From contig JALHLK010000007.1 in the NCBI GenBank assembly GCA_022844565.1, forward strand, positions 12,050-76,049: DNA of 64,000 nucleotides. Direction: 5' to 3'. The notes under the pieces were generated by a model. That model saw only the letters and a program-made list of their open reading frames with translations. It ran no database searches and had not been told where the DNA came from. Source of the stretch: Saprospiraceae bacterium. Its GTDB lineage: Bacteria; Bacteroidota; Bacteroidia; Chitinophagales; Saprospiraceae. The translations under genes and the position numbers were made by a program. Positions 2,527-20,947 of this stretch are shown piece by piece. Each line of letters begins with the position of its first letter. The first letter of the stretch is position 1.

Positions 2527-3978
2527 TTGGATATGACAGACAAAGAATTTGACGATATTATAAAAAACAAATTATCAGCTTTTGAAAATAATTCAAAACC
2601 TGACTGGAATTCTTTTTCTAAAAAACTAGAAGAATCAGAAAAAAGCGAAAAAGAATTTGACGCCCTAATTGCAGCAAAATTAAAAAACTTTACTAAGCCT
2701 GTAAAGTCATCACACTGGGAATTATTAAGAAAACGATTAATCAAGGAGGAGTTTGTTAGACGTAAAGTTTACTCTCTAAAAAGCATAGAATCTTTCTCAC
2801 TACTGCTTTTATTACTAATTACACTTAATAATCAGTATGTAAAATTTGATTTTGCAAAATACACAGATCCCACATTGTATGCAGAATTGTTTAATAGGAA
2901 TGAAGTTCTGCCAAAAAGAATAAATAACCAATTGGTCTTTAATGAAAAAATTAATGTAAGCTCAAGTGAAATTGAGGTTGTAGTCGATGATGAAGTTATT
3001 AAGGAAGAAAATAATGATGTTGTAATAGACCAAAACCTATTTACTGTTCCTTTTCAATCATTAAAATCAGTACCAATTGTAAATGTGTTTAGCACTAAAA
3101 TTCGGGAAATAAACAATACTATAGGTGATGAAATATTGCTAGCAACAGATGGGGAACGAACATCAGTTGAGCCTTTTGATGGCTTGGAACAAATCGTATT
3201 AAAAGACCAAATGAAGTCTCTTTACAAACCATATGTAGATACAAGATTCATTTATAATCCACATATGTATAACAAGGGATTCACCTTTTATGATTTAAGT
3301 ATTTATGGTAACTCTGGGATGGTCCAAGTAAATTCACCATATGACCCAATTTATGACGTGGAGAGCAATAAACGATATGGTAAAGTATCCAAAATTGGAG
3401 TATTATTTGGTGCTGGTACAGAACGATTTAAATTAAAAACAGGTCTAGAATATCAGTCAATAAGTTATAAGCCACAACAAGTAGAAGAGATTTTTGGCTC
3501 GATGTCCAATGGCTTGAAAAAATATAGCCTCGATGGTATTAAGTTTGACATCATAAGTGTCCCAATGAGAGTCAGTGTTAATATGTTAAAATCTGAAAAA
3601 GCTAGTCTTAATCTATTAGCTGGTGTCAATACAAATGCCATCTTTAATGCTGATCATAGGATACAAGAAACGGAATTATCTAGAGAAGAAACGATTAGTT
3701 TAAACAGTGCTTTTCCAACAGGTCAAAGATCTGTAAAACAGGAACCTAAGTTATTTCAAAAGACTTTTTCGAAGGGTGTATTTTCAGAAGGTGGACTTGA
3801 TAACATTTATTTTGATGCAAATGTCGAGGTGGAATATGAGCGAAAAATTAATGATACAAAATCATTCCAGATTGCATTAGGAACATCTCGATTTTTAGGT
3901 TCAAAAGGGGTAGGACCCAATAATGATGCACTGCATGGCGTCTATGCCAGATTAGGGCTATCTTACAAATTGAATTAA
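2527..3978 (+). CDS. membrane protein downstream of the ECF sigma gene; putative anti-sigma factor with a beta-rich C-terminal domain
   Basis: Starts 18 nt after the sigma gene. It has a charged N-terminus, one hydrophobic span (SFSLLLLLLITL) and a long beta-strand-like C-terminus ending GVYARLGLSYKLN. The role is inferred from gene position only. Confidence 0.45.
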   Translation: MDMTDKEFDDIIKNKLSAFENNSKPDWNSFSKKLEESEKSEKEFDALIAAKLKNFTKPVKSSHWELLRKRLIKEEFVRRKVYSLKSIESFSLLLLLLITLNNQYVKFDFAKYTDPTLYAELFNRNEVLPKRINNQLVFNEKINVSSSEIEVVVDDEVIKEENNDVVIDQNLFTVPFQSLKSVPIVNVFSTKIREINNTIGDEILLATDGERTSVEPFDGLEQIVLKDQMKSLYKPYVDTRFIYNPHMYNKGFTFYDLSIYGNSGMVQVNSPYDPIYDVESNKRYGKVSKIGVLFGAGTERFKLKTGLEYQSISYKPQQVEEIFGSMSNGLKKYSLDGIKFDIISVPMRVSVNMLKSEKASLNLLAGVNTNAIFNADHRIQETELSREETISLNSAFPTGQRSVKQEPKLFQKTFSKGVFSEGGLDNIYFDANVEVEYERKINDTKSFQIALGTSRFLGSKGVGPNNDALHGVYARLGLSYKLN

Positions 3979-5092: not shown

Positions 5093-5935
5093 TTATTTTG
5101 TGACAATATTAGCAACTGTACGTAATACAATCCTCCTAACCTGTCGATGAATTTCTTTTCTAACCTCTTTTAGTACATATTGAAACTTAAAATCAATCAC
5201 ATCTTTAGAGACTTTTAGCAATTTAAGATTGTAAGAATCTGGCACAAGATAGTGTTCCATCGGTTGACAAGCTAAAATTAGCTTCTTTTCCAATTCTTCA
5301 ACACTCCTTATCTTATTGATGTCCATTTGAAAGTCAACTGACATACTTCTGATATTTCTTTTGGTATAATTGACGATGTCTGCATTATAAAATTTAGAGT
5401 TGGCTACATAGAGCACTTCATCGTCCTCTGTAAGAAGCGTAATTTTTTGCAACCCAAGTTCTACAATCTTTCCTTTTTGATCATTGTATTCTACGATATC
5501 ATCTATTTCAATTTTCGAAGAAAATCCATTGATAATGCCGATGATGATTTCTGCAATAAACTCCTTGGTCACAATGGCGATCGCAGCTGCTACGATACTT
5601 AATGATGTGAATACTTGTTTCAAATCCAAGCCCATCAAAGATAAAATGACTAAAAAAATAGACAATACGACAATAATGGTATACAAGTTTTTTAGTCCGA
5701 CGAGTATATTATCTCTGGTTCGATTCTTATTCATCTCTTTGCCTACGATCGTGTAGACGATTGTAATTTCGATAATGGTTCTAATGCTGATTAAAAGGAT
5801 AAGTAGACTCAATATAGTCCTGATTATTGCGGCATTTGTAAGTTTACTATAATACTCAGGATGAGTCCTTAGAAATAGAAAAAAGATCATTAATAAAATA
5901 GATATGATAATTTTTATCATTCGTTCTCTCTTCAT
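5093..5935 (-). CDS. mechanosensitive ion channel family protein (MscS-like)
   Basis: Several N-terminal TM helices, then the MscS beta-domain pattern IEIDDIVEYNDQKGKIVELGLQKITLLTEDDEVLYVANSKFYNADIVNYT. Confidence 0.8.
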   Translation of the reverse strand: MKRERMIKIIISILLMIFFLFLRTHPEYYSKLTNAAIIRTILSLLILLISIRTIIEITIVYTIVGKEMNKNRTRDNILVGLKNLYTIIVVLSIFLVILSLMGLDLKQVFTSLSIVAAAIAIVTKEFIAEIIIGIINGFSSKIEIDDIVEYNDQKGKIVELGLQKITLLTEDDEVLYVANSKFYNADIVNYTKRNIRSMSVDFQMDINKIRSVEELEKKLILACQPMEHYLVPDSYNLKLLKVSKDVIDFKFQYVLKEVRKEIHRQVRRIVLRTVANIVTK

Positions 5936-6407: not shown

Positions 6408-9400
6408 ATGAGTCAAATAAGCAATTACGAATTACTCTTAAGCAAGCTGGATCAATTTATAAGGAAGTATTATATAAATAATTTATTAAGGGGATTATTG
6501 TATTTTACAGGTGTAGTGGTGGGATTGTTCCTACTTATCAACTTACTAGAAAATAATTTTTACTTCGATAAGTCAGTCCGAAAGGTAATGTTTTATGGAT
6601 TTGTAGGCATATCTATGTTATTGGGATATAAATGGATGGTAGACCCTATATTTCGGTACTTCCATCTAGGCAAGACGATCTCCCATGAGCAAGCTGCGGT
6701 CATCATAGGTGATCATTTTACTGATATTAAAGATCGACTTCTCAATATTTTACAGCTCAAGAAAATGGCAGATGGACAAGACCAATCGAATCTAATCTTA
6801 GCGAGTATCAATCAAAAGACAGAAAAAATCAAATTAATTCCTTTTCAATCAGCCATAGATTTGGGAGGAAATAGAAAATATTTAAAATATGCTGCACCGC
6901 CCTTATTGTGTTTGGTGGCCGTATTATTTATGTCACCTTCTTTGATCAAAGACAGTACTTTTAGATTAATCAATAATGACAAAGATTTTGAGAAGGAAGC
7001 ACCTTTTCAATTTAAGATAGAAAATAAAGACCTAACAGCTGTACAATTTGAAGATTATACGCTTAAGGTAAATGTGGAGGGTAGTATATTACCTGATGAG
7101 GTATTTGTAGAAATCGACGGGTATAATTACAAATTGGAAAAGCAAGGTGCAGATCAATTTGAGTATACTTTTAGAAATGTACAGAAGAATACCAATTTTG
7201 TCATCAACGCAGCACAAGTAAAAGGTTTGCCACAAACCCTTGCAGTAATAGAAAAGCCAAACATTGCTAATTTTGTAACTTCGCTTAGATTTCCTCAATA
7301 CCTTGATCGATCCAATGAAGAATTAGACAACGTAGGTGATCTCATCGTACCTGAAGGAACGGTGATTGACTGGTCTTTCAGTACAAAAGCCACGGAAGAT
7401 GTAAACTTATTATTTGGAGAAAAAGGACCCCTCAAATCAGCAGAGCAAAGAGCAGAAAATCTTTATAATTTCAAAATAAAAGCCAACAATTCAACTCCAT
7501 ATAAAATATACTTGTCCAACCAATTTTTGGCCAATGCAGATTCATTTTTATACAATATTACGGTCATAAAAGATCAATACCCTACTGTATCGGTAGAGCA
7601 ATTGATTGACAGTACCGATAAGTCAGCGATCTTGTTTACAGGTAATGTAGCTGATGATTATGGTGTATCGTCTTTGGTGCTCAATTATACACTATCTGAT
7701 GAAGCAGGAAAGTCAAAGCCAGTTAAAAAGGTAAAAGTTGGTTTGCCAAGCATGGCTAATGAAGCGGGTTTCCAGCATGTATTTAGATTGGAGGAATTAA
7801 ATCTTCAGCCTGGCGACAATCTGAGTTACTACTTTGAGGTATTTGACAATGATGGTGTGAATGGTGCAAAATCTACGAAGTCTCAAGTACTTACTTTCAA
7901 GAAGCCATCTGTATCAGAATTGAAAGAACTAGAAGAAAAGAATGAAGAAGCGATAGAAAAGAACCTTCAAGAGGCGCTCAATAAGTACGACAAGATGGAG
8001 GAGCGCTATAGAAAATTAAAAGAAAAACTTCTTAATAAAAAAGAATTGGACTGGCAAGATCGAAAAGAACTTGAAAAGATCTTAGAAGAGCAAAAGAAAC
8101 TTCAAGAACAAATGAAGCAGTCTAACGAAAAAATGCTGGAGAACATGAAAATGCAAAATGAAATGCAAAACATGGACCAGAAGACTGAAGAGAAGCAAGA
8201 AAAGCTCGAACAAATGATGAAGGAGACCATAAGTGAAGAAAATAAAGAGCTTATGGAAAGAATTCAAGAATTGATGCAAGAATTGGATAAAGAAGACGCG
8301 CTCCGTATTATGGATCAAATGCAAATGGAGAATGAAAACATGGATAAGAAAACTGAGCGTCTAAAAGAACTTTTCGAACAGCTCAAAATGGAAAAAGATA
8401 TTAAAGAGCAAATTGACAAACTGGATAAATTAGCGGATAAGCAAGAAGAGTTGGCTAAAAAAACTGAAAAGCTAGACGAGAAAAATAATAAGGACGATAA
8501 TAAGAAAGAAGGAGATAAAAAAGATTCTGCTCAAGAAGATAAGAAAAAAAGTGAGGAGCTCCAGAAAGAGCAAAATGATATAAAAAAGCAGTTGGAAGAT
8601 ATTCAAAAAGAGCTCAAAAAGCTAGAAGAAGAGAATAAAGAATTGTCTCCACCAAAAGATATGGGGGAAGATAATCAAGAGAAAATGGATGACGCCAAAA
8701 AGGATATGGATAAGGCCGACAAAGAGATGAAAAAAGAAGATAATAAAGCTGCATCGAAAGCTCAAAAGTCTGCTGCCAAGAAGATGAAAGATCAAGCTGG
8801 AGAAATGGGCGAGTCTATGGAAGGTGGAGACCAAGAACAACAAACCGAGGATATTAAAACGATCCGTCAGATATTAGAAAATTTGGTAACTTTATCAGTC
8901 AATCAGGAGGATCTTTTTGGAATGTTTGCAAAAACTCCTTCCACAACGCCTAAGTTTAGAGATCTAGTAAGAGAGCAACTAAAAATCAAGGATGACTTTA
9001 AGATCGTAGAAGATAGTCTCATAGCCTTGAGCAATAGAAATGATCAAATCTCAAGTTTTATCAATGAGAAAGTGACGGAGATTAAGTACAATATGTCAAA
9101 TAGTATTTCATTACTTGAAGAAAGGCAAGTACCTCAGTCTACCGACAAGCAGCGAAGGTCAATGACAAATTTAAATGATTTGGCATTAATGCTTTCCGAA
9201 TCTATGGAAAATATGCAAAAGCAAAAAGCAGGAGGTATGCCAGGAGCCCAAATGTGTCAAAATCCTGGAGGTAAATCAGGTAAAACGGGGAAGGTGCCTA
9301 TGGACAAAATAGGTGAAGGTCAAGATGGAGTAGGCGGCAAGCTTAAAGAATTAAAAGACAAAATGGGCAAAGGTGGTAAAGACGGTCCAAATGCCAAAGA

Positions 9401-10823: not shown

Positions 10824-10912
10824 GGTGAGATGGGTGAGTGGCTGAAACCAACGGTTTGCTAAACCGTCGTACCTGTCAAAGGGTACCCCGGGTTCGAATC
10901 CCGGTCTCACCG
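10824..10912 (+). tRNA. tRNA-Ser (anticodon GCT), long variable arm
   Basis: Acceptor GGTGAGA/TCTCACC. Anticodon stem ACGGT/ACCGT with loop TTGCTAA. Long variable arm and T-loop GGTTCGAATCC. Confidence 0.9.
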
Positions 10913-10934
10913 CATTTATGAAAGCTGCTATATT

Positions 10935-11009
10935 CGGGGCGTAGCGCAGCCCGGTTAGCGTACCTGGTTTGGGACCAGGTGGTCGCAGGTTCGAATCCTG
11001 CCGCCCCGA
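10935..11009 (+). tRNA. tRNA-Pro (anticodon TGG)
   Basis: Acceptor CGGGGCG/CGCCCCG. Anticodon stem CCTGG/CCAGG with loop TTTGGGA. T-loop GGTTCGAATCC. Confidence 0.9.
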
Positions 11010-11074: not shown

Positions 11075-11375
11075 TTAAATCAGTAAGAAAGCACATCCGA
11101 ACTATAGAAAAATATCATAACAATCTGCGAAAATCAGCGGGAAAGTACACCCGAACCATTAACAAGTAGGTATTGCATACTGCGAAAATCAGCGGGAAAC
11201 ACCCCCGAACTATTCAAAATACTCATAGAAATCTGCGAAATTCAGCGGAAAAGCACAAACGAACTTTATGAAATTGTCATTGCACTCAGCGAAAATTAGC
11301 GGGAAGGTACAACTGGACTATGCAAAACATCCATGCAAATCAGCGGCAAAGCATACTCAAACTATACAAAACATG
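11075..11375. repeat. degenerate tandem repeat, about 6 units of 47-55 nt
   Basis: The unit core CTGCGAAAATCAGCGGGAAAG(T)ACACCCGAAC(T/C)AT starts at 11125, 11180 and 11233. More diverged copies lie near 11075, 11285 and 11332. Confidence 0.75.
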
Positions 11376-13420: not shown

Positions 13421-14497
13421 ATGAGATTTTTTGTATTCGTATTTTTGATCATTGGTTTGACATCCTGTAGTGAGCAGATGAAAACCAATCTTACTCCAAA
13501 ACCTAAGGCATTTGGTAAAATGAACCAAGTTAACATCATTGCCGATGCCACAATTTATGATAGTCCTGTAAAAGATAGTTTAGAAAATTATTTTGAATCT
13601 GCTTATCCTGTAATGCCCTCTCCTGAGCCTATGTTCGACCTGAGGTACTTTACAATGGAAGATATTCAAGCGGACAAATTAAAGAAGGAACTCCGTTCTT
13701 ATATTATTTTAGTAAATATTGATGATTTAAATAGTCCAATCACTAAGATGCTTCAACAAGATCTTGGTTCGGAAAACTTTAGACAAGTACAAGGAGACAG
13801 TAAAAAGAATAACATAGCTTATGGCTTAGATAAATGGGCACAAGGGCAAATAGTCATTTATCTTATGGGTAGAGGCATGGAGGGTATCACAAGCGCGATA
13901 AGATCGCAGTATCCCAATGTAGCAAAAAGATTTAATGATCATGATGAAGAACAACTTCATGCCAATTTGTATGGTAGTGCAGGTGTAAACAGTGAAGGTA
14001 ATATAGCAATTAAAGATAGTTTTGGAATAGATCTTTCACTTCCTTCTTCATTCAAAAGATCTAAGACAATTGATAATGCTAACTTTATTTGGTTTGTACG
14101 CGATTTAAGAGAGGCCACCCAGCATATCGTAGTTAGAAAATTTCCATATACATCCGATTCTCAGTTTACCAAACAATCAGTGATTGATATGAGAAATGAA
14201 TATGGTGCAAAATATATATCATCACAATCTAAAGGTTCTTATATGGTAACACAAGATAAGTTGTTGCCTGTATTCGAATACAATGCGACAATTGGTAAGG
14301 CATACGCAAAAGAGTTTAGAGGAGTATGGGAGTTAGAAAATGACTTTAAGGGAGGTCCTTTTGTTACTTTCCTTATAAAAAATGAAGCAAAGAAAGAAAT
14401 AATATTTGTAGATTGCTTTGTATATGGACCTGGTTCAGAAAAGCGTGACGCAGTGCAGCAGTTGGCTTATATCGTAAAGAAGGCGAAGTTGATTTAA
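13421..14497 (+). CDS. lipoprotein of unknown function (DUF4837-like)
   Basis: Lipoprotein signal MRFFVFVFLIIGLTSC. The family name is recalled, not verified. Confidence 0.5.
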   Translation: MRFFVFVFLIIGLTSCSEQMKTNLTPKPKAFGKMNQVNIIADATIYDSPVKDSLENYFESAYPVMPSPEPMFDLRYFTMEDIQADKLKKELRSYIILVNIDDLNSPITKMLQQDLGSENFRQVQGDSKKNNIAYGLDKWAQGQIVIYLMGRGMEGITSAIRSQYPNVAKRFNDHDEEQLHANLYGSAGVNSEGNIAIKDSFGIDLSLPSSFKRSKTIDNANFIWFVRDLREATQHIVVRKFPYTSDSQFTKQSVIDMRNEYGAKYISSQSKGSYMVTQDKLLPVFEYNATIGKAYAKEFRGVWELENDFKGGPFVTFLIKNEAKKEIIFVDCFVYGPGSEKRDAVQQLAYIVKKAKLI

Positions 14498-14509
14498 TTT
14501 TTTAATTAT

Positions 14510-14726
14510 CTAATGTTCAAATTTTCTAATTTTCAAATGATCTAATGGTTAAATGATCTAATGATCAAATGGTATAATAATCTATTTTGAAATGATATAA
14601 AGTTCAAATACTTAAATGATTTTATTAACATTTTTGGCTTTTAGACTTTTCGAAGGAGACTTAATTTTTAATGAACTATTTTTTAAAAATTTGAAAATTT
14701 CCAATATTTAAAAATTTGAACATTGG
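14510..14726. repeat. palindromic/MITE-like intergenic element bounded by AATGTTCAAATTTT inverted repeats
   Basis: AATGTTCAAATTTT at 14512..14525 and its reverse complement AAAATTTGAACATT at 14711..14724. Internal copies of (T)CAAATGATCTAATG at 14533 and 14550. The same motifs recur at 34297..34356. Confidence 0.55.
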
Positions 14727-18070: not shown

Positions 18071-18318
18071 ACCTTGCATATAAATTTTTAAATTAAATAT
18101 AGTTTATTGATTATATTTTTTTCAGCAGTCCCTATTTAGTGATAATATGCAATAAGTTTAAATATTTTTGAAACATGCCATAATGGCAATCTATTTATTA
18201 AATAAGTGTCAATATGGCATTTTTAAAATATTTAAACTGACATAATTACCTGATAGTCAGTAATGGTACATAATTTGAATGTAAATAATCATTATTAACA
18301 AATTCAAATAATTTAAGT

Positions 18319-18729
18319 ATGTATCATAATCATTCAAATGTAGGACCCACCATGTTTAGAGTTTTTAAGCCAGTAATTGATGAGCTATTAAACGAAATCG
18401 AGAATCCAAAGACAACGACTTCCAAAAATGTTTTGGCAAATATTGTTGAGTCAGAAACTGCTTATGAAATTCAGCTATCTGTAAGTGGTCACACCAAAGA
18501 GACTGTTAAAATCAAAATTGAGGATAATGTTTTGAAAGTGGAAGGAACTGCTCAGCCAACTGATGTGAATTTTAAGCTCAAGGAATTTGGTGTTAGATCT
18601 TTTACCAGAAGTTTTAACTTACCTAAAAATATCGACAAGAACCAAATACAAGCTCGATTTGAAAATGGTATTTTGTTAGTGACCATCGCAAAGAGTGCGC
18701 TTGTATCAACCAAAGTAGAAATTATTTAA
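18319..18729 (+). CDS. small heat-shock protein (Hsp20/alpha-crystallin family)
   Basis: Alpha-crystallin domain ANIVESETAYEIQLSVSGHTKETVKIKIEDNVLKVEG...FTRSFNLPKNIDKNQIQARFENGILLVTI. The start could instead be the internal Met (MFRVF). Confidence 0.85.
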   Translation: MYHNHSNVGPTMFRVFKPVIDELLNEIENPKTTTSKNVLANIVESETAYEIQLSVSGHTKETVKIKIEDNVLKVEGTAQPTDVNFKLKEFGVRSFTRSFNLPKNIDKNQIQARFENGILLVTIAKSALVSTKVEII

Positions 18730-18750: not shown

Positions 18751-19194
18751 ATGAAAACAAACAACATTCAACCGTTTTTTCCATCAAGGAGTATCAATCA
18801 GGTTTTTGACCATTTATTTAATAGGCCATTAACTGATGTAGTTGGATCTGACTTTAGTCATAGTAGTCCAGCTGTTAATATAAAAGAGAATGAAAATGCT
18901 TTCGTTCTCGAACTGGCTGTACCAGGCCTAGACAAGAATAATTTTGATGTAAAAGTAGAAGACAATTTTTTGAAAATCTCCTACGAACACTCAAGTAATG
19001 AAGAAGAGATTAAAGAAAATGTGTATACAAGAAGAGAGTTTAAGTATACTTCATTTAGTAGATCTTTTCAGTTGCCAGAAACAGTGGAAGCGGATCAAAT
19101 AAAAGGAAATTATCAAGATGGTATTTTATCGGTAATTTTGCCTAAAAATAAGCAAATTATCGAAAATAAGGTAAAAACTATTGAGATAGCATAA
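18751..19194 (+). CDS. small heat-shock protein (Hsp20/alpha-crystallin family)
   Basis: PAVNIKENENAFVLELAVPGLDKNNFDVKVEDNFLKIS...FSRSFQLPETVEADQIKGNYQDGILSVILPK. Confidence 0.9.
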   Translation: MKTNNIQPFFPSRSINQVFDHLFNRPLTDVVGSDFSHSSPAVNIKENENAFVLELAVPGLDKNNFDVKVEDNFLKISYEHSSNEEEIKENVYTRREFKYTSFSRSFQLPETVEADQIKGNYQDGILSVILPKNKQIIENKVKTIEIA

Positions 19195-19210: not shown

Positions 19211-19262
19211 AAGCCCTCGATATATGGTGGTAATATACTCCCTTTATCGAGGGCTTTTTTTT
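19211..19262 (+). terminator. rho-independent terminator of the hsp20 pair
   Basis: AAGCCCTCGATA ... TATCGAGGGCTT stem followed by a T-run of 8 or more. Confidence 0.8.
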
Positions 19263-19329
19263 ATATATTAGATTTATCTTTTTGAAAATGTACCTTATTT
19301 ATTAAGATTTTGTTCAATTTTATCATTTA

Positions 19330-19975
19330 GGCAAAATGGTTAAGGAGGTGTAGTTTTAAAGTTAAGGAGGTTAAGATTTTAAGTTAAATAAGGTTAAGTT
19401 TACTTGTGCTTCTTGTCATCCTTGACCATCTTAACTTCTCTTAATCTTTTTAACATTAGGACTAAGTGGTTAAGGAGGTCAAATTTTTAAGTTAAGTAAG
19501 GTTAAGTTTTCTTAAACATCTGATCATTCTTAACTATCTTAACTTCTCTTAACCTTTTTAAAATTAGGACCAGGTGGTTAAGGAGGTTAAGTTTTTAAGT
19601 TAAGGAAGGTTAAGTTTTCTTGCACTTCTGGTCATTCTTAACTATCTTAACATCTCTTAACCTTTTTAACACTGGGAAGGTTGAGGAGGTTGAGTTTTGA
19701 TGTACTTCTGGTAATTCTTAACCATTTTAACTCCTTAAAACTTTTTTAACATTGGGAATAGGTGGTTGAGGAGGTTAAGTTTTTAAGTTAAGTAAGGTTA
19801 AGTTTTCTTGCACTTCAGGTCATTCTTAACCATCTTAACTTCTCTTAACCTTTTTAACATTGGGAAGGTTAAGGAGATTAAGTTTTCTTGTGCTTCAGGT
19901 CATTCTTAACCATCTTAACTTCTCTTAACCTTTTTAACATTAGGACTTAGCGGTTGAGGAGGTTAAGTTTTTAAC
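19330..19975 (+). repeat. tandem array of 6 full + 1 partial hairpin-forming units (84-130 nt)
   Basis: Unit = GGTTAAGGAGGTTAAG... arm, ~22-nt loop, then CTTAACCATCTTAACTTCTCTTAACC arm and TTTTTAACA. Unit boundary markers sit near 19447, 19553, 19661, 19741, 19849 and 19929. No ORF of 60 aa or more on either strand. Confidence 0.85.
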
Positions 19976-20098
19976 TATTTACCTTGCAAGAGTACTATTA
20001 AAAAAAATAACATCATCTTAAGACTGGTAAAATTCTTTTTTTATCAGATCCCATTTAACTTTGCTCAATTATAAATCAAAATATTAAAATAAGTTATC

Positions 20099-20947
20099 AT
20101 GACAAAGAACATTTTTACGGTATTAATAGTATTACTCGTTTTTACAATGGGAAATACACAGATTAACACTCCACAAGCAAGTCCATTATCTACCATTACT
20201 CAAAAGGTAGGATTGGCAGATGTAAAAATTGAGTATAGCAGGCCTTCTTTGAAAGGAAGAAAAATGATAGGTAGCACATTAGTACCTTATGGATCCGTAT
20301 GGCGAACGGGAGCAAATGCGATCCCAAAATTAGTGCTTTCACATGATGTGATGATAGGTGGAAAAGATGTACCTGCGGGTACTTATGGATTGATCACTAT
20401 ACCAAATTTAAAAACTTGGACCATTATTATTACAAAAAATGCTGAACAGTGGGGTACATATGGATATAAAGTAGAAGAAGACTTAGTGAGATTTGATGCA
20501 AAAGTAGAGGCTTTAACTAAAAAAGCAGAGAACTTCACGATAGGTCTAACTGACCTAAAGGATGAAAGTGCTAATATCTATATAAAATGGGACATGGTAA
20601 GTGTGAAATTTCCTATAAAACACGACGCTCACAGCATAGTAATGAAAGAAATTGATCAAAAAATGCAAGGAAGTGATATAACTACGGACTCTTATTTTAG
20701 CGCTGCAGATTATTATTTTGATAAAGGTATTGAGTTAGAAAAAGCATTGCAATGGGCTAATAAAGTAGTAGAAGCTGACCAGAAATATTGGACATATTAC
20801 TTAAGAGGTAAAATTGCGGCTAAGCTTGGTAAATGCGATATAGCACTAGAAGATGCTAAAAAAGGAATCGAAATGGCTAAGGCTGAAAAAGATCCTGCAT
20901 ATGTGAAAAACCATCAAAAGGTGATCAATTCTTGTACTAAGAAGTAG
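20099..20947 (+). CDS. exported DUF2911-like protein with a helical (TPR-like) C-terminus
   Basis: Signal peptide, then ASPLSTITQKVGLADVKIEYSRPSLKGRK...VWRTGANAIPKLVLSHDV...GTYGL, recalled as the DUF2911 pattern. Confidence 0.65.
   Translation: MTKNIFTVLIVLLVFTMGNTQINTPQASPLSTITQKVGLADVKIEYSRPSLKGRKMIGSTLVPYGSVWRTGANAIPKLVLSHDVMIGGKDVPAGTYGLITIPNLKTWTIIITKNAEQWGTYGYKVEEDLVRFDAKVEALTKKAENFTIGLTDLKDESANIYIKWDMVSVKFPIKHDAHSIVMKEIDQKMQGSDITTDSYFSAADYYFDKGIELEKALQWANKVVEADQKYWTYYLRGKIAAKLGKCDIALEDAKKGIEMAKAEKDPAYVKNHQKVINSCTKK

Follow-up and report, generated by a model that had tools for sequence, protein, structure and literature searches.

A tandem array of hairpin-forming repeats between the hsp20 and DUF2911 genes of a Saprospiraceae bacterium: sequence analysis suggests a young non-coding minisatellite

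The hsp20-DUF2911 spacer and the structure of the array

In the analysed stretch of Saprospiraceae DNA (64,000 nucleotides, 35% G+C; hereafter, the window), a pair of Hsp20/alpha-crystallin genes and a DUF2911 gene are both located on the plus strand and are separated by a spacer of 905 nt (Table 1). The closest proteins are found in Saprospiraceae MAGs. The terminator of the hsp20 pair forms the upstream edge of the spacer; its hairpin occupies positions 19211-19256, and a run of eight T follows directly. The first-pass annotation had placed a repeat array between this terminator and a plus-strand gene. Both landmarks are indeed present, the DUF2911 gene being the downstream one. Comparing the motif list with the ORF starts by eye, we found the TAnnTTTG box tens of nucleotides (up to ~150) 5' of many start codons in the window. 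An exact box of this kind lies between the array and the DUF2911 gene, which places the promoter of this gene downstream of the array. A motif scan of the window revealed no exact TAnnTTTG box within or just before the array. The site at 19281-19312 is a near-match with an inexact TAnnTTTG box, and would be a weak promoter candidate.

Table 1. Features of the hsp20-DUF2911 region (positions in the window)
Feature	Position	Strand	Description
Hsp20/alpha-crystallin gene pair	18319-18729 and 18751-19194	+	Pfam PF00011
Intrinsic terminator of the hsp20 pair	19211-19264	+	AAGCCCTCGAT...ATCGAGGGCTT then T8; from inverted repeat, terminator scan and sequence
Near-match to the Bacteroidota promoter	19281-19312	+	TTTG-N18-TAAGATTTTG; 26 nt 5' of the array
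Unit 1 (U1)	19338-19467	+	130 nt; three 5' subrepeats, two GGAGG cores, loop, 3' arm, linker
Unit 2 (U2)	19468-19575	+	108 nt; two subrepeats
Unit 3 (U3)	19576-19678	+	103 nt; two subrepeats; long half of the first 188-nt higher-order repeat
Unit 4 (U4)	19679-19763	+	85 nt; one subrepeat; 5' arm GGTTGAGGAGGTTGAG
Unit 5 (U5)	19764-19866	+	103 nt; two subrepeats; cleanest hairpin
Unit 6 (U6)	19867-19951	+	85 nt; one subrepeat; GGAGA replaces GGAGG
Partial unit 7 (U7)	19952-19989	+	one 5' subrepeat, without 3' arm
Exact Bacteroidota -7 box	20056-20063	+	TAACTTTG; 36 nt 5' of the DUF2911 start codon; kept in the related loci L049 and L057
DUF2911 gene with signal peptide	20099-20947	+	Pfam PF11138, E = 1.9e-50; downstream of the array

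The array spans positions 19338-19989 and consists of six full head-to-tail units and a partial seventh, all on the plus strand. This organization, described already in the first-pass annotation, was confirmed by TRF, by a repeat search and by unit splitting. TRF gave periods of 108, 80 and 188 nt with scores of 475, 275 and 715, respectively, and the repeat search of the window gave unit-to-unit spacings of 108, 108, 80, 108 and 80. The unit boundaries were set by splitting the sequence at GGTT[AG]AGGAG. The 188-nt period corresponds to a higher-order repeat made of one long and one short unit, and the alternation of short and long units, previously taken as a sign of higher-order duplication, is therefore real.

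The 5' part of each unit contains one to three copies of a purine-rich subrepeat of 22-23 nt (GGTTAAGGAGGTTAAGTTTTTAA). According to the unit alignment, there are 3, 2, 2, 1, 2, 1 and 1 copies in U1 to U7, and it is this variation in copy number that produces the length classes of the units. At the U7 position, the strains of L057 and L049 have two subrepeats versus one in the window. The remaining parts of the unit are invariant: a 34-nt 3' arm (CTTAACCATCTTAACTTCTCTTAACCTTTTTAAC), a loop of ~18-22 nt and a linker of 8-13 nt. U4 is the most diverged unit; A-to-G changes in its 5' arm yield G·U pairs. In the 5' arm, the hexamer GTTAAG recurs in phase every 9-13 nt, and the 3' arm carries its complement CTTAAC. 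Since one arm repeats the hexamer and the other its complement, pairing is possible in any register, and this accounts for the hairpin potential of the units.

The largest ORF inside the array encodes 33 amino acids and is the only one of at least 30 amino acids, in agreement with the earlier statement that no ORF reaches 60 amino acids. We rejected a coding region or micro-ORFs as an explanation, as neither strand has a conserved ORF. The ATG after the core of U4 and an 11-codon ORF on the minus strand are not conserved between the units. A CRISPR array was also rejected: the whole unit is repeated, with the loop and the linker included, so there are no unique spacers. The only Rfam CRISPR match was below the threshold (16.9 bits versus 48) and fell on the hsp20 terminator. 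As a candidate replication origin (oriC) the region failed too, with no DnaA box of one mismatch or fewer between positions 18519 and 21656.

It turned out that 19 of the 23 perfect heptamers GGTTAAG/CTTAACC of the window are located inside the 650-bp array, and that they stand 9-13 bp apart, which is near one helical turn. Both this concentration and this spacing would suit a platform for protein binding to DNA 5' of the DUF2911 promoter, where the heptamer, present in both orientations, might work like an operator or iteron and recruit a DNA-binding protein in many copies. We consider such a platform improbable. Duplication alone explains the enrichment of the heptamers, and in the unit alignment, inspected by eye, the conservation of the hexamers does not exceed that of the linkers. 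The neighbours scanned with Pfam include no gene of a DNA-binding protein; the motif is missing both 5' of the DUF2911 orthologue and 3' of the hsp20 orthologues, and the lack of a DnaA-box cluster argues against an origin.

Folding of the units and strand asymmetry

It had been proposed that each unit folds into a hairpin of about 25 bp. For the plus-strand RNA, the prediction bears this out in the long units, which form ~30 bp in three helices, but in the short units only ~15 bp form and half of the 3' arm stays unpaired. The predicted hairpin of U5 has helices of 15, 8 and 7 bp and an energy of -34.6 kcal/mol; in it, the pairing of GUUAAGGAGGUUAAG with CUUAACCUUUUUAAC uses two G·U pairs. 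The predicted RNA hairpin of U1 has an energy of -35.3 kcal/mol on the plus strand versus -19.9 kcal/mol on the minus strand. The same asymmetry was obtained for the RNA of the whole array: -202.6 kcal/mol (z = -8.4 relative to dinucleotide shuffles) for the plus strand and -134.6 kcal/mol (z = -3.7) for the minus strand. The DNA fold of the whole array gave -73.4 kcal/mol for the plus strand and -67.4 kcal/mol for the minus strand. When the 5' arm was compared with the reverse-complemented 3' arm, there were 20 G·U-type mismatches on the plus strand versus 5 on the minus strand. Such a bias of 20 to 5 would be the expected product of selection on the plus-strand RNA.

The main rival to the minisatellite reading set out below is thus a functional structured RNA of the plus strand. 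It would arise by read-through from hsp20 or start from the weak promoter-like sequence (19281-19312), and would have a modest role, such as a stack of hairpins that guards the hsp20 transcript at its 3' end or insulates DUF2911 from heat-induced read-through. We regard this RNA as unlikely. The strong strand asymmetry of the fold energy and the G·U bias point to it. It is also consistent with eight one-sided changes (A-to-G and C-to-T) that keep the pairing as G·U, with the plus-strand orientation of both flanking genes and with the perfect conservation of the 60 nt directly 5' of the array, where the window and L057 share 100% identity. The value of the G·U bias as evidence for selection on RNA is lessened, because the units are copies of each other and the strand contains 59% G+T. 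In addition, by our reading of the unit alignment, ~6-8 of the unit-specific transitions in the stems are favourable to plus-strand pairing versus 4 unfavourable. A split this close to even implies that the G·U bias is mostly inherited from the consensus, and this too speaks against the RNA.

Covariation was assessed by counting the U5 structure over all units. In 89% of the cells the bases pair, and compensatory pairs are absent across the units; the covariation score was equalled in 500 of 500 shuffles. Thus, the covariation analysis of the units that the first-pass annotation had suggested came out negative, which argues against a functional RNA, as do the neutral-like divergence of the array and its absence from close relatives (see below). 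The strain of L057 can apparently do without all but one unit. A strong terminator lies 5' of the array, the exact -7 box is absent, and the units have no flagged U-tract terminators. The earlier idea of a structured non-coding RNA retains one line of support: the plus-strand RNA folds far better than the minus-strand RNA, with G·U-type mismatches at 20 to 5 in its favour, but an exact promoter motif is lacking.

Other RNA-level candidates were rejected using the same scans, which flagged neither terminator-like nor sigma-70-like sites inside the array. A tandem array of small RNA genes (NsiR1-like) does not fit units that have no TAnnTTTG box, sigma-70-like site or terminator-like site, and stacked intrinsic terminators do not fit an array in which no terminator-like site was flagged. 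At the gathering threshold, Rfam detected only two tRNAs in the window; at a permissive threshold, the best match in the array scored 23 bits versus a threshold of 60.

The GGAGG cores and translation initiation

The array contains seven copies of GGAGG, all on the plus strand, at positions 19344, 19366, 19474, 19582, 19685, 19770 and 19958. The count and the strand reported in the first-pass annotation were correct, but the last core starts at 19958 and not at 19957. The remaining 63 kb of the window contain 30 further plus-strand copies. A core in each unit, as had been claimed, was not found: U1 has two, and U6 has GGAGA. In the inner subrepeats, GTAAGG, GGAAGG or ATAAGG stands where the core would be. 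In the outer subrepeat, GGAGG has been kept against A+T pressure in six of the seven units. The seven GGAGG are copies made by duplication and not seven independent events. The motif arises as a side product of the GGTTAAGGA periodicity and lies hidden in the predicted stems.

In the predicted pairing, the cores face a CCUUUUU run. For six of the seven cores, the predicted pairing amounts to 95-100% at 37-45 °C (with a probability of 0.95-0.99 at 45 °C), and it is still 88-96% at 55 °C. This arrangement resembles fourU RNA thermometers, for example that of agsA in Salmonella, in which the Shine-Dalgarno (SD) sequence is paired by a U run. As in fourU elements, an AGGAGG-like sequence stands opposite a U run in a stem rich in A-U and G·U pairs, near a gene of a small heat-shock protein. 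Unlike them, the array is located 3' of hsp20 instead of within a 5' UTR, the cores are not followed by a start codon, and the stems are far longer and predicted to stay closed at 45-55 °C, in a host without SD use. A fourU or other SD-sequestering thermometer was rejected on two points: the cores are not 5-12 nt before a start codon, and the stem is predicted to be closed in the heat range. Inspection of the array sequence revealed no conserved start codon 3' of the cores, and the nearest gene start lies 141 nt past the last core.

We also assessed the start codons of the window. An SD-like motif of 4 nt precedes 2 of the 44 start codons, GGAGG precedes none of them, and the leaders are A/T-rich. 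This agrees with the earlier description of A/T-rich leaders without GGAGG. On this evidence, the organism does not use SD sequences. Ribosomes of Bacteroidia are reported to be SD-blind, the anti-SD being sequestered by bS21, bS18 and bS6 (PMC13000453, PMC9976891, PMC7797042). A strong SD in Flavobacterium johnsoniae is reported for a single gene, rpsU (PMC13000453, PMC9976891, PMC7797042), and the anti-SD is described as functional for rpsU (PMC13000453).

The first-pass annotation had raised the possibility of an anti-SD decoy. In its fullest form, the cores would titrate the 3' tail of 16S rRNA, or bS21-free ribosomes, when the hairpins melt upon heat shock, so that the array would act as a decoy or as a fourU-like series of thermosensors. 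Seven copies of (A/G)AGGAGGT on one strand would be in line with this, and so would the pairing of each core with a CCUUUUU run in the manner of the SD in fourU thermometers, the adjoining hsp20 genes and the anti-SD reported as functional for rpsU in F. johnsoniae (PMC13000453). We give this combined model hardly any credence, and a decoy role is very unlikely because the cores are predicted to be paired, have no start codons and are degenerate inside the units, while SD sequences are unused in the genome and Bacteroidia ribosomes are reported to be SD-blind (PMC13000453). The cores are predicted to remain paired at the temperatures given above, U6 has GGAGA instead of the core, the inner subrepeats have lost it, no promoter is present, and the L057 strain apparently manages with one unit. 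The main value of the analysis is negative: a conspicuous SD-like run in an SD-less organism is a side effect of a low-complexity repeat and not a decoy.

Distribution, origin and relation to known repeats

A BLAST search with the unit found matches confined to the array, with no second copy in the 64-kb window. No unit match was found by BLAST in the plasmid and phage collections. In an exact-pattern scan of metagenome contigs, a 20-mer of the 3' arm gave two single matches, which we read as chance. Among 185,579 species genomes, a 20-mer of the 5' arm (GGTTRAGGAGGTTRAGTTTT) gave nine single matches, none of them with an array unit; five were read as chance or coding sequence and four as low-complexity repeats or hairpins of similar style. 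Scans of viral contigs gave only chance-like single matches or repeats mostly of the coding type.

We compared the locus with those of close strains. In the contig of the same strain (L048), the array is 100% identical over 904 nt. Directly after the hsp20 stop codon, this contig has an extra insertion of 167 nt with terminal inverted repeats, and its spacer is 905 nt once the insertion is removed. L057 has the same hsp20-to-DUF2911 arrangement, with flanks ~95-98% identical and hsp20 98% identical to those of the window. Its assembled array consists of one full unit and a terminal partial unit with two subrepeats. The spacer thus measures 905 nt in the window and L048, ~635 nt in an ENA contig (270 nt shorter than in the window) and 441 nt in L057, all of these being short-read assemblies, which can collapse repeats. 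The contig L049 starts inside the array. Apparently, the array breaks or collapses short-read assemblies: L049 ends in it and L057 seems to skip through it. If the length differences are genuine, the locus could be used as a VNTR strain marker for this uncultured Saprospiraceae-like lineage.

U1 and its counterpart in L057 differ at 7 of 130 positions (5.4%). In the same comparison, the difference amounts to 4-13% at third codon positions and 3.5-9% in the flanking intergenic DNA. As the value for U1 falls within both ranges, the array diverges approximately neutrally. In relatives with ~80% protein identity, synteny is broken: an ABC transporter comes after the hsp20 pair, and LolA precedes DUF2911. 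Neither of the two spacers in these relatives contains clusters of GTTNAG/CTNAAC, and the array is absent. A possible relic of the array upstream of DUF2911 in L001 (ACAATCTTAATTACTCTTAA) was rejected as not significant, since 9 of 200 shuffles scored as high.

The position of the array exactly at the synteny breakpoint brings to mind a mobile element. Foldback elements have inverted arms made of subrepeats, and the arms of the units are built likewise. Possibly, the array is what is left of a foldback-type element (MITE) that inserted at the hsp20/DUF2911 rearrangement or mediated it and was then amplified by duplication in place. In L048, the same spacer took up the 167-nt insertion bounded by inverted repeats, which is consistent with such a history. 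We find this origin rather improbable: there are no further copies in the 64 kb or in the related loci examined, no target-site duplication is evident in the flanks by eye, and the Pfam scan of the neighbours revealed no adjacent transposase gene.

Taken together, the data suggest that the array is a non-coding minisatellite of recent origin, confined to a single locus of one Saprospiraceae-like species and possibly variable in copy number. This reading follows from the tandem hierarchy, the single locus, the species-level age, the synteny breakpoint, the differences in assembly length, the neutral-like divergence, the lack of covariation and the lack of a promoter. The units are arranged head to tail and fall in the ~10-150 nt range of minisatellites (TRF periods of 80, 108 and 188; six full units); the array is non-coding (a 33-aa ORF at most) and is absent beyond close relatives (relatives with ~80% identity have no array). 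Specifically, we consider it fairly probable that it is a lineage-specific, non-coding foldback minisatellite (VNTR) driven by slippage or recombination. Both this mechanism and the lack of function are inferred. Among the candidate roles named in the first-pass annotation, only the satellite is favoured by the data, with a single locus in the window, one species-level lineage, three assembly lengths (from short reads), approximately neutral divergence and no compensatory changes; the anti-SD decoy did not. Several observations run counter to the minisatellite: the strand-asymmetric fold, the G·U bias, the conserved 60 nt with the near-promoter and the persistence of GGAGG.

According to the minisatellite reading, the array would grow and shrink by slipped-strand mispairing or unequal recombination at three nested levels, namely the 22-23-nt subrepeat (1-3 per unit), the 85-130-nt unit and the 188-nt double unit. 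It would fill a spacer created when the DUF2911 gene came to adjoin the hsp20 operon, and it probably has no sequence-specific function. Read-through from hsp20, if any, would yield a plus-strand RNA folded into long A-U/G·U hairpins stacked one after another, and these may serve at most as a structural buffer between two transcription units.

The four sequences of similar style among the nine 5'-arm matches come from L007 (Saprospiraceae), L009 and L002 (Chitinophagaceae) and L010, a sample that is biased since the search pattern contained the motif. In these loci, repeats of ~9 nt, GGTT(A/G/T)AGGA, begin directly after a stop codon. In L007, L009 and L010, all of them Bacteroidota MAGs, a complementary arm of CTNAACC repeats completes a hairpin of ~30-40 bp (judged by eye from the predicted folds); L002 has tandem repeats only. 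As in the array, the G-rich 5' arm comes first in the sense orientation, and the CT(T/C/A)AACC 3' arm often places U opposite G; unlike the array, these are single hairpins. The same 9-mer in tandem in viral contigs is mostly a coding repeat. These matches hint at a recurrent low-complexity hairpin type at the 3' ends of Bacteroidota genes. They also lend some support to the plus-strand RNA, as the loosely similar GGTTNAG hairpins of L007 and L009 start in the sense orientation right after the stop codon, and the purine-rich repeats of L002 are placed after the stop codon and before a canonical terminator. It is possible to go further and regard the array as the amplified form of an undescribed class of plus-strand hairpins in Saprospiraceae/Chitinophagales, with a GGAGG-rich (GGTTNAGGA)n 5' arm and a U-rich 3' arm at gene 3' ends, which would exert their effect as RNA, for example by terminating transcription in an unconventional way or by protecting 3' ends. 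We consider this quite improbable. Next to hsp20, a member of such a class might keep SD-like sequence in a heat-labile reserve that is visible only to ribosomes without bS21. If there is a transcribed stack of plus-strand hairpins akin to the GGTTNAG hairpins near stop codons, it would point to a kind of 3'-end RNA element so far undescribed in the phylum.

Among known repeats, the minisatellite has its counterpart in the MIRU of Mycobacterium tuberculosis, which are bacterial intergenic minisatellite/VNTR loci. In both, a non-coding spacer that separates genes of the same strand is occupied by units of tens to ~100 nt repeated head to tail, and conservation ends at the species. The copy number of MIRUs varies between close strains, and that of the array may do so as well, judging from short-read contigs of different length. 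In contrast to the array, which is known at one locus, MIRUs are dispersed over many loci and contain short overlapping ORFs. Another difference is that each unit of the array forms a long, imperfect hairpin and contains nested subrepeats, with a 188-nt repeat at a higher order.

BOX elements of Streptococcus pneumoniae have a variable boxB module and more than 100 dispersed copies per genome. The array is likewise modular, with a varying copy number of an internal module, and the whole element folds as a stable stem-loop. However, BOX elements are dispersed, whereas amplification of the array unit took place in tandem at a single site. REP/BIME elements and the array are both extragenic hairpin repeats; the former can cluster 3' of genes, with a presumed effect on the ends of mRNAs. 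Successive copies in BIMEs point in alternate directions. REPs are described as sequences of 20-40 bp with a high copy number and GTAG or CGTC tags (PMC3733652). The array units differ in that they are 85-130 nt long, have a single orientation and occupy one locus, with no second copy in the 64-kb window.

TAACTGA repeats are lineage-specific intergenic short tandem repeats of Bacteroidetes, Cyanobacteria and Beggiatoaceae (PMC4679880). They share with the array intergenic direct repetition, a patchy strain-specific spread and indels of whole units, and their closest relatives keep the neighbourhood without the repeats (PMC4679880). The difference is that their units are of 7 nt and are found at many loci, mostly just 5' of start codons, whereas the array units are of 85-130 nt, self-complementary and restricted to one locus. 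Compared with all these systems, the array is a bacterial intergenic minisatellite, a known kind of repeat, whose units happen to be hairpins.

Expression signals and the region upstream of hsp20

Many start codons in the window are preceded by a promoter-like TAnnTTTG box, which lies tens of nucleotides (at most ~150) upstream, and a 4-nt Shine-Dalgarno-like motif was found in just 2 of the 44 leaders. These two observations confirm that the expression signals of the window are of the Bacteroidota type. The TAnnTTTG box at 18163 is overlapped by nested inverted repeats, which consist of the pairs AGTTTAAATATTTTTGAAA / TTTTTAAAATATTTAAACT and TGCCATAATGGCA / TGTCAATATGGCA. These repeats may be a heat-shock operator that differs from CIRCE.

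Repeats and an insertion in the window and in other contigs

Features identified in the window and in other contigs
Feature	Contig	Position	Location
Second tandem array	window	11087-11340	just 3' of two tRNA genes (10824-11009)
16-nt tandem repeat AATGATCTAATGTTCA, 4-5 copies	window	14490-14584	spacer between two convergent genes
Nested inverted repeats	window	18155-18238	upstream of the hsp20 pair
167-nt insertion	L048	3505-3671 (window 19194/19195)	exactly 3' of the hsp20 stop codon
GGTT(A/G/T)AGGA-repeat element	L007 (Saprospiraceae)	3753-3840	
GGTT(A/G/T)AGGA-repeat element	L009 (Chitinophagaceae)	6539-6664	
GGTT(A/G/T)AGGA-repeat element	L010 (Bacteroidota)	2708-2791	
GGTT(A/G/T)AGGA-repeat element	L002 (Chitinophagaceae)	177-250	
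Palindromic repeats GCCTTCGAGAGCCTCAGGCACCGG, dispersed	L009 (Chitinophagaceae)	5411-5626, 7676-7764	

Apart from the insertion, the same-strain contig L048 is 100% identical to the window over the hsp20-to-DUF2911 spacer and the hairpin array. The insertion is bounded by terminal inverted repeats of ~21 nt (ATGAGTCCATTCCGAAAAGTC ... GACACTTTTCGGATTGGACTCAT) and looks like a MITE-type presence/absence polymorphism. The second tandem array of the window has a period of 108 with 2.3 copies according to TRF, and it is built of ~54-nt units, each of which contains CTGCGAAAATCAGCGG.

Related elements in other contigs

In the four contigs of other Bacteroidota MAGs found with a 20-mer from the 5' arm of the hairpin array, each GGTT(A/G/T)AGGA element is either one long hairpin or a tandem series of purine-rich repeats, built of this motif in both cases. 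The elements are located immediately 3' of a stop codon, and in the sense orientation their G-rich arm comes first. Such elements may represent a recurrent 3'-end element. Separately, an identical segment that carries GAGAGGTTAAGGAGGTTAAGGAGGTTAAG and, ~40 nt downstream, CTCAACCTTCTTAACCTCC occurs in four viral contigs (L062, L073, L080 and L083). The two sequences together form a hairpin in the style of the GGTTNAG-type hairpins, and its surroundings are G+C-rich and phage-like. As for known systems, the dispersed palindromes of the Chitinophagaceae contig L009 are similar to REP elements.
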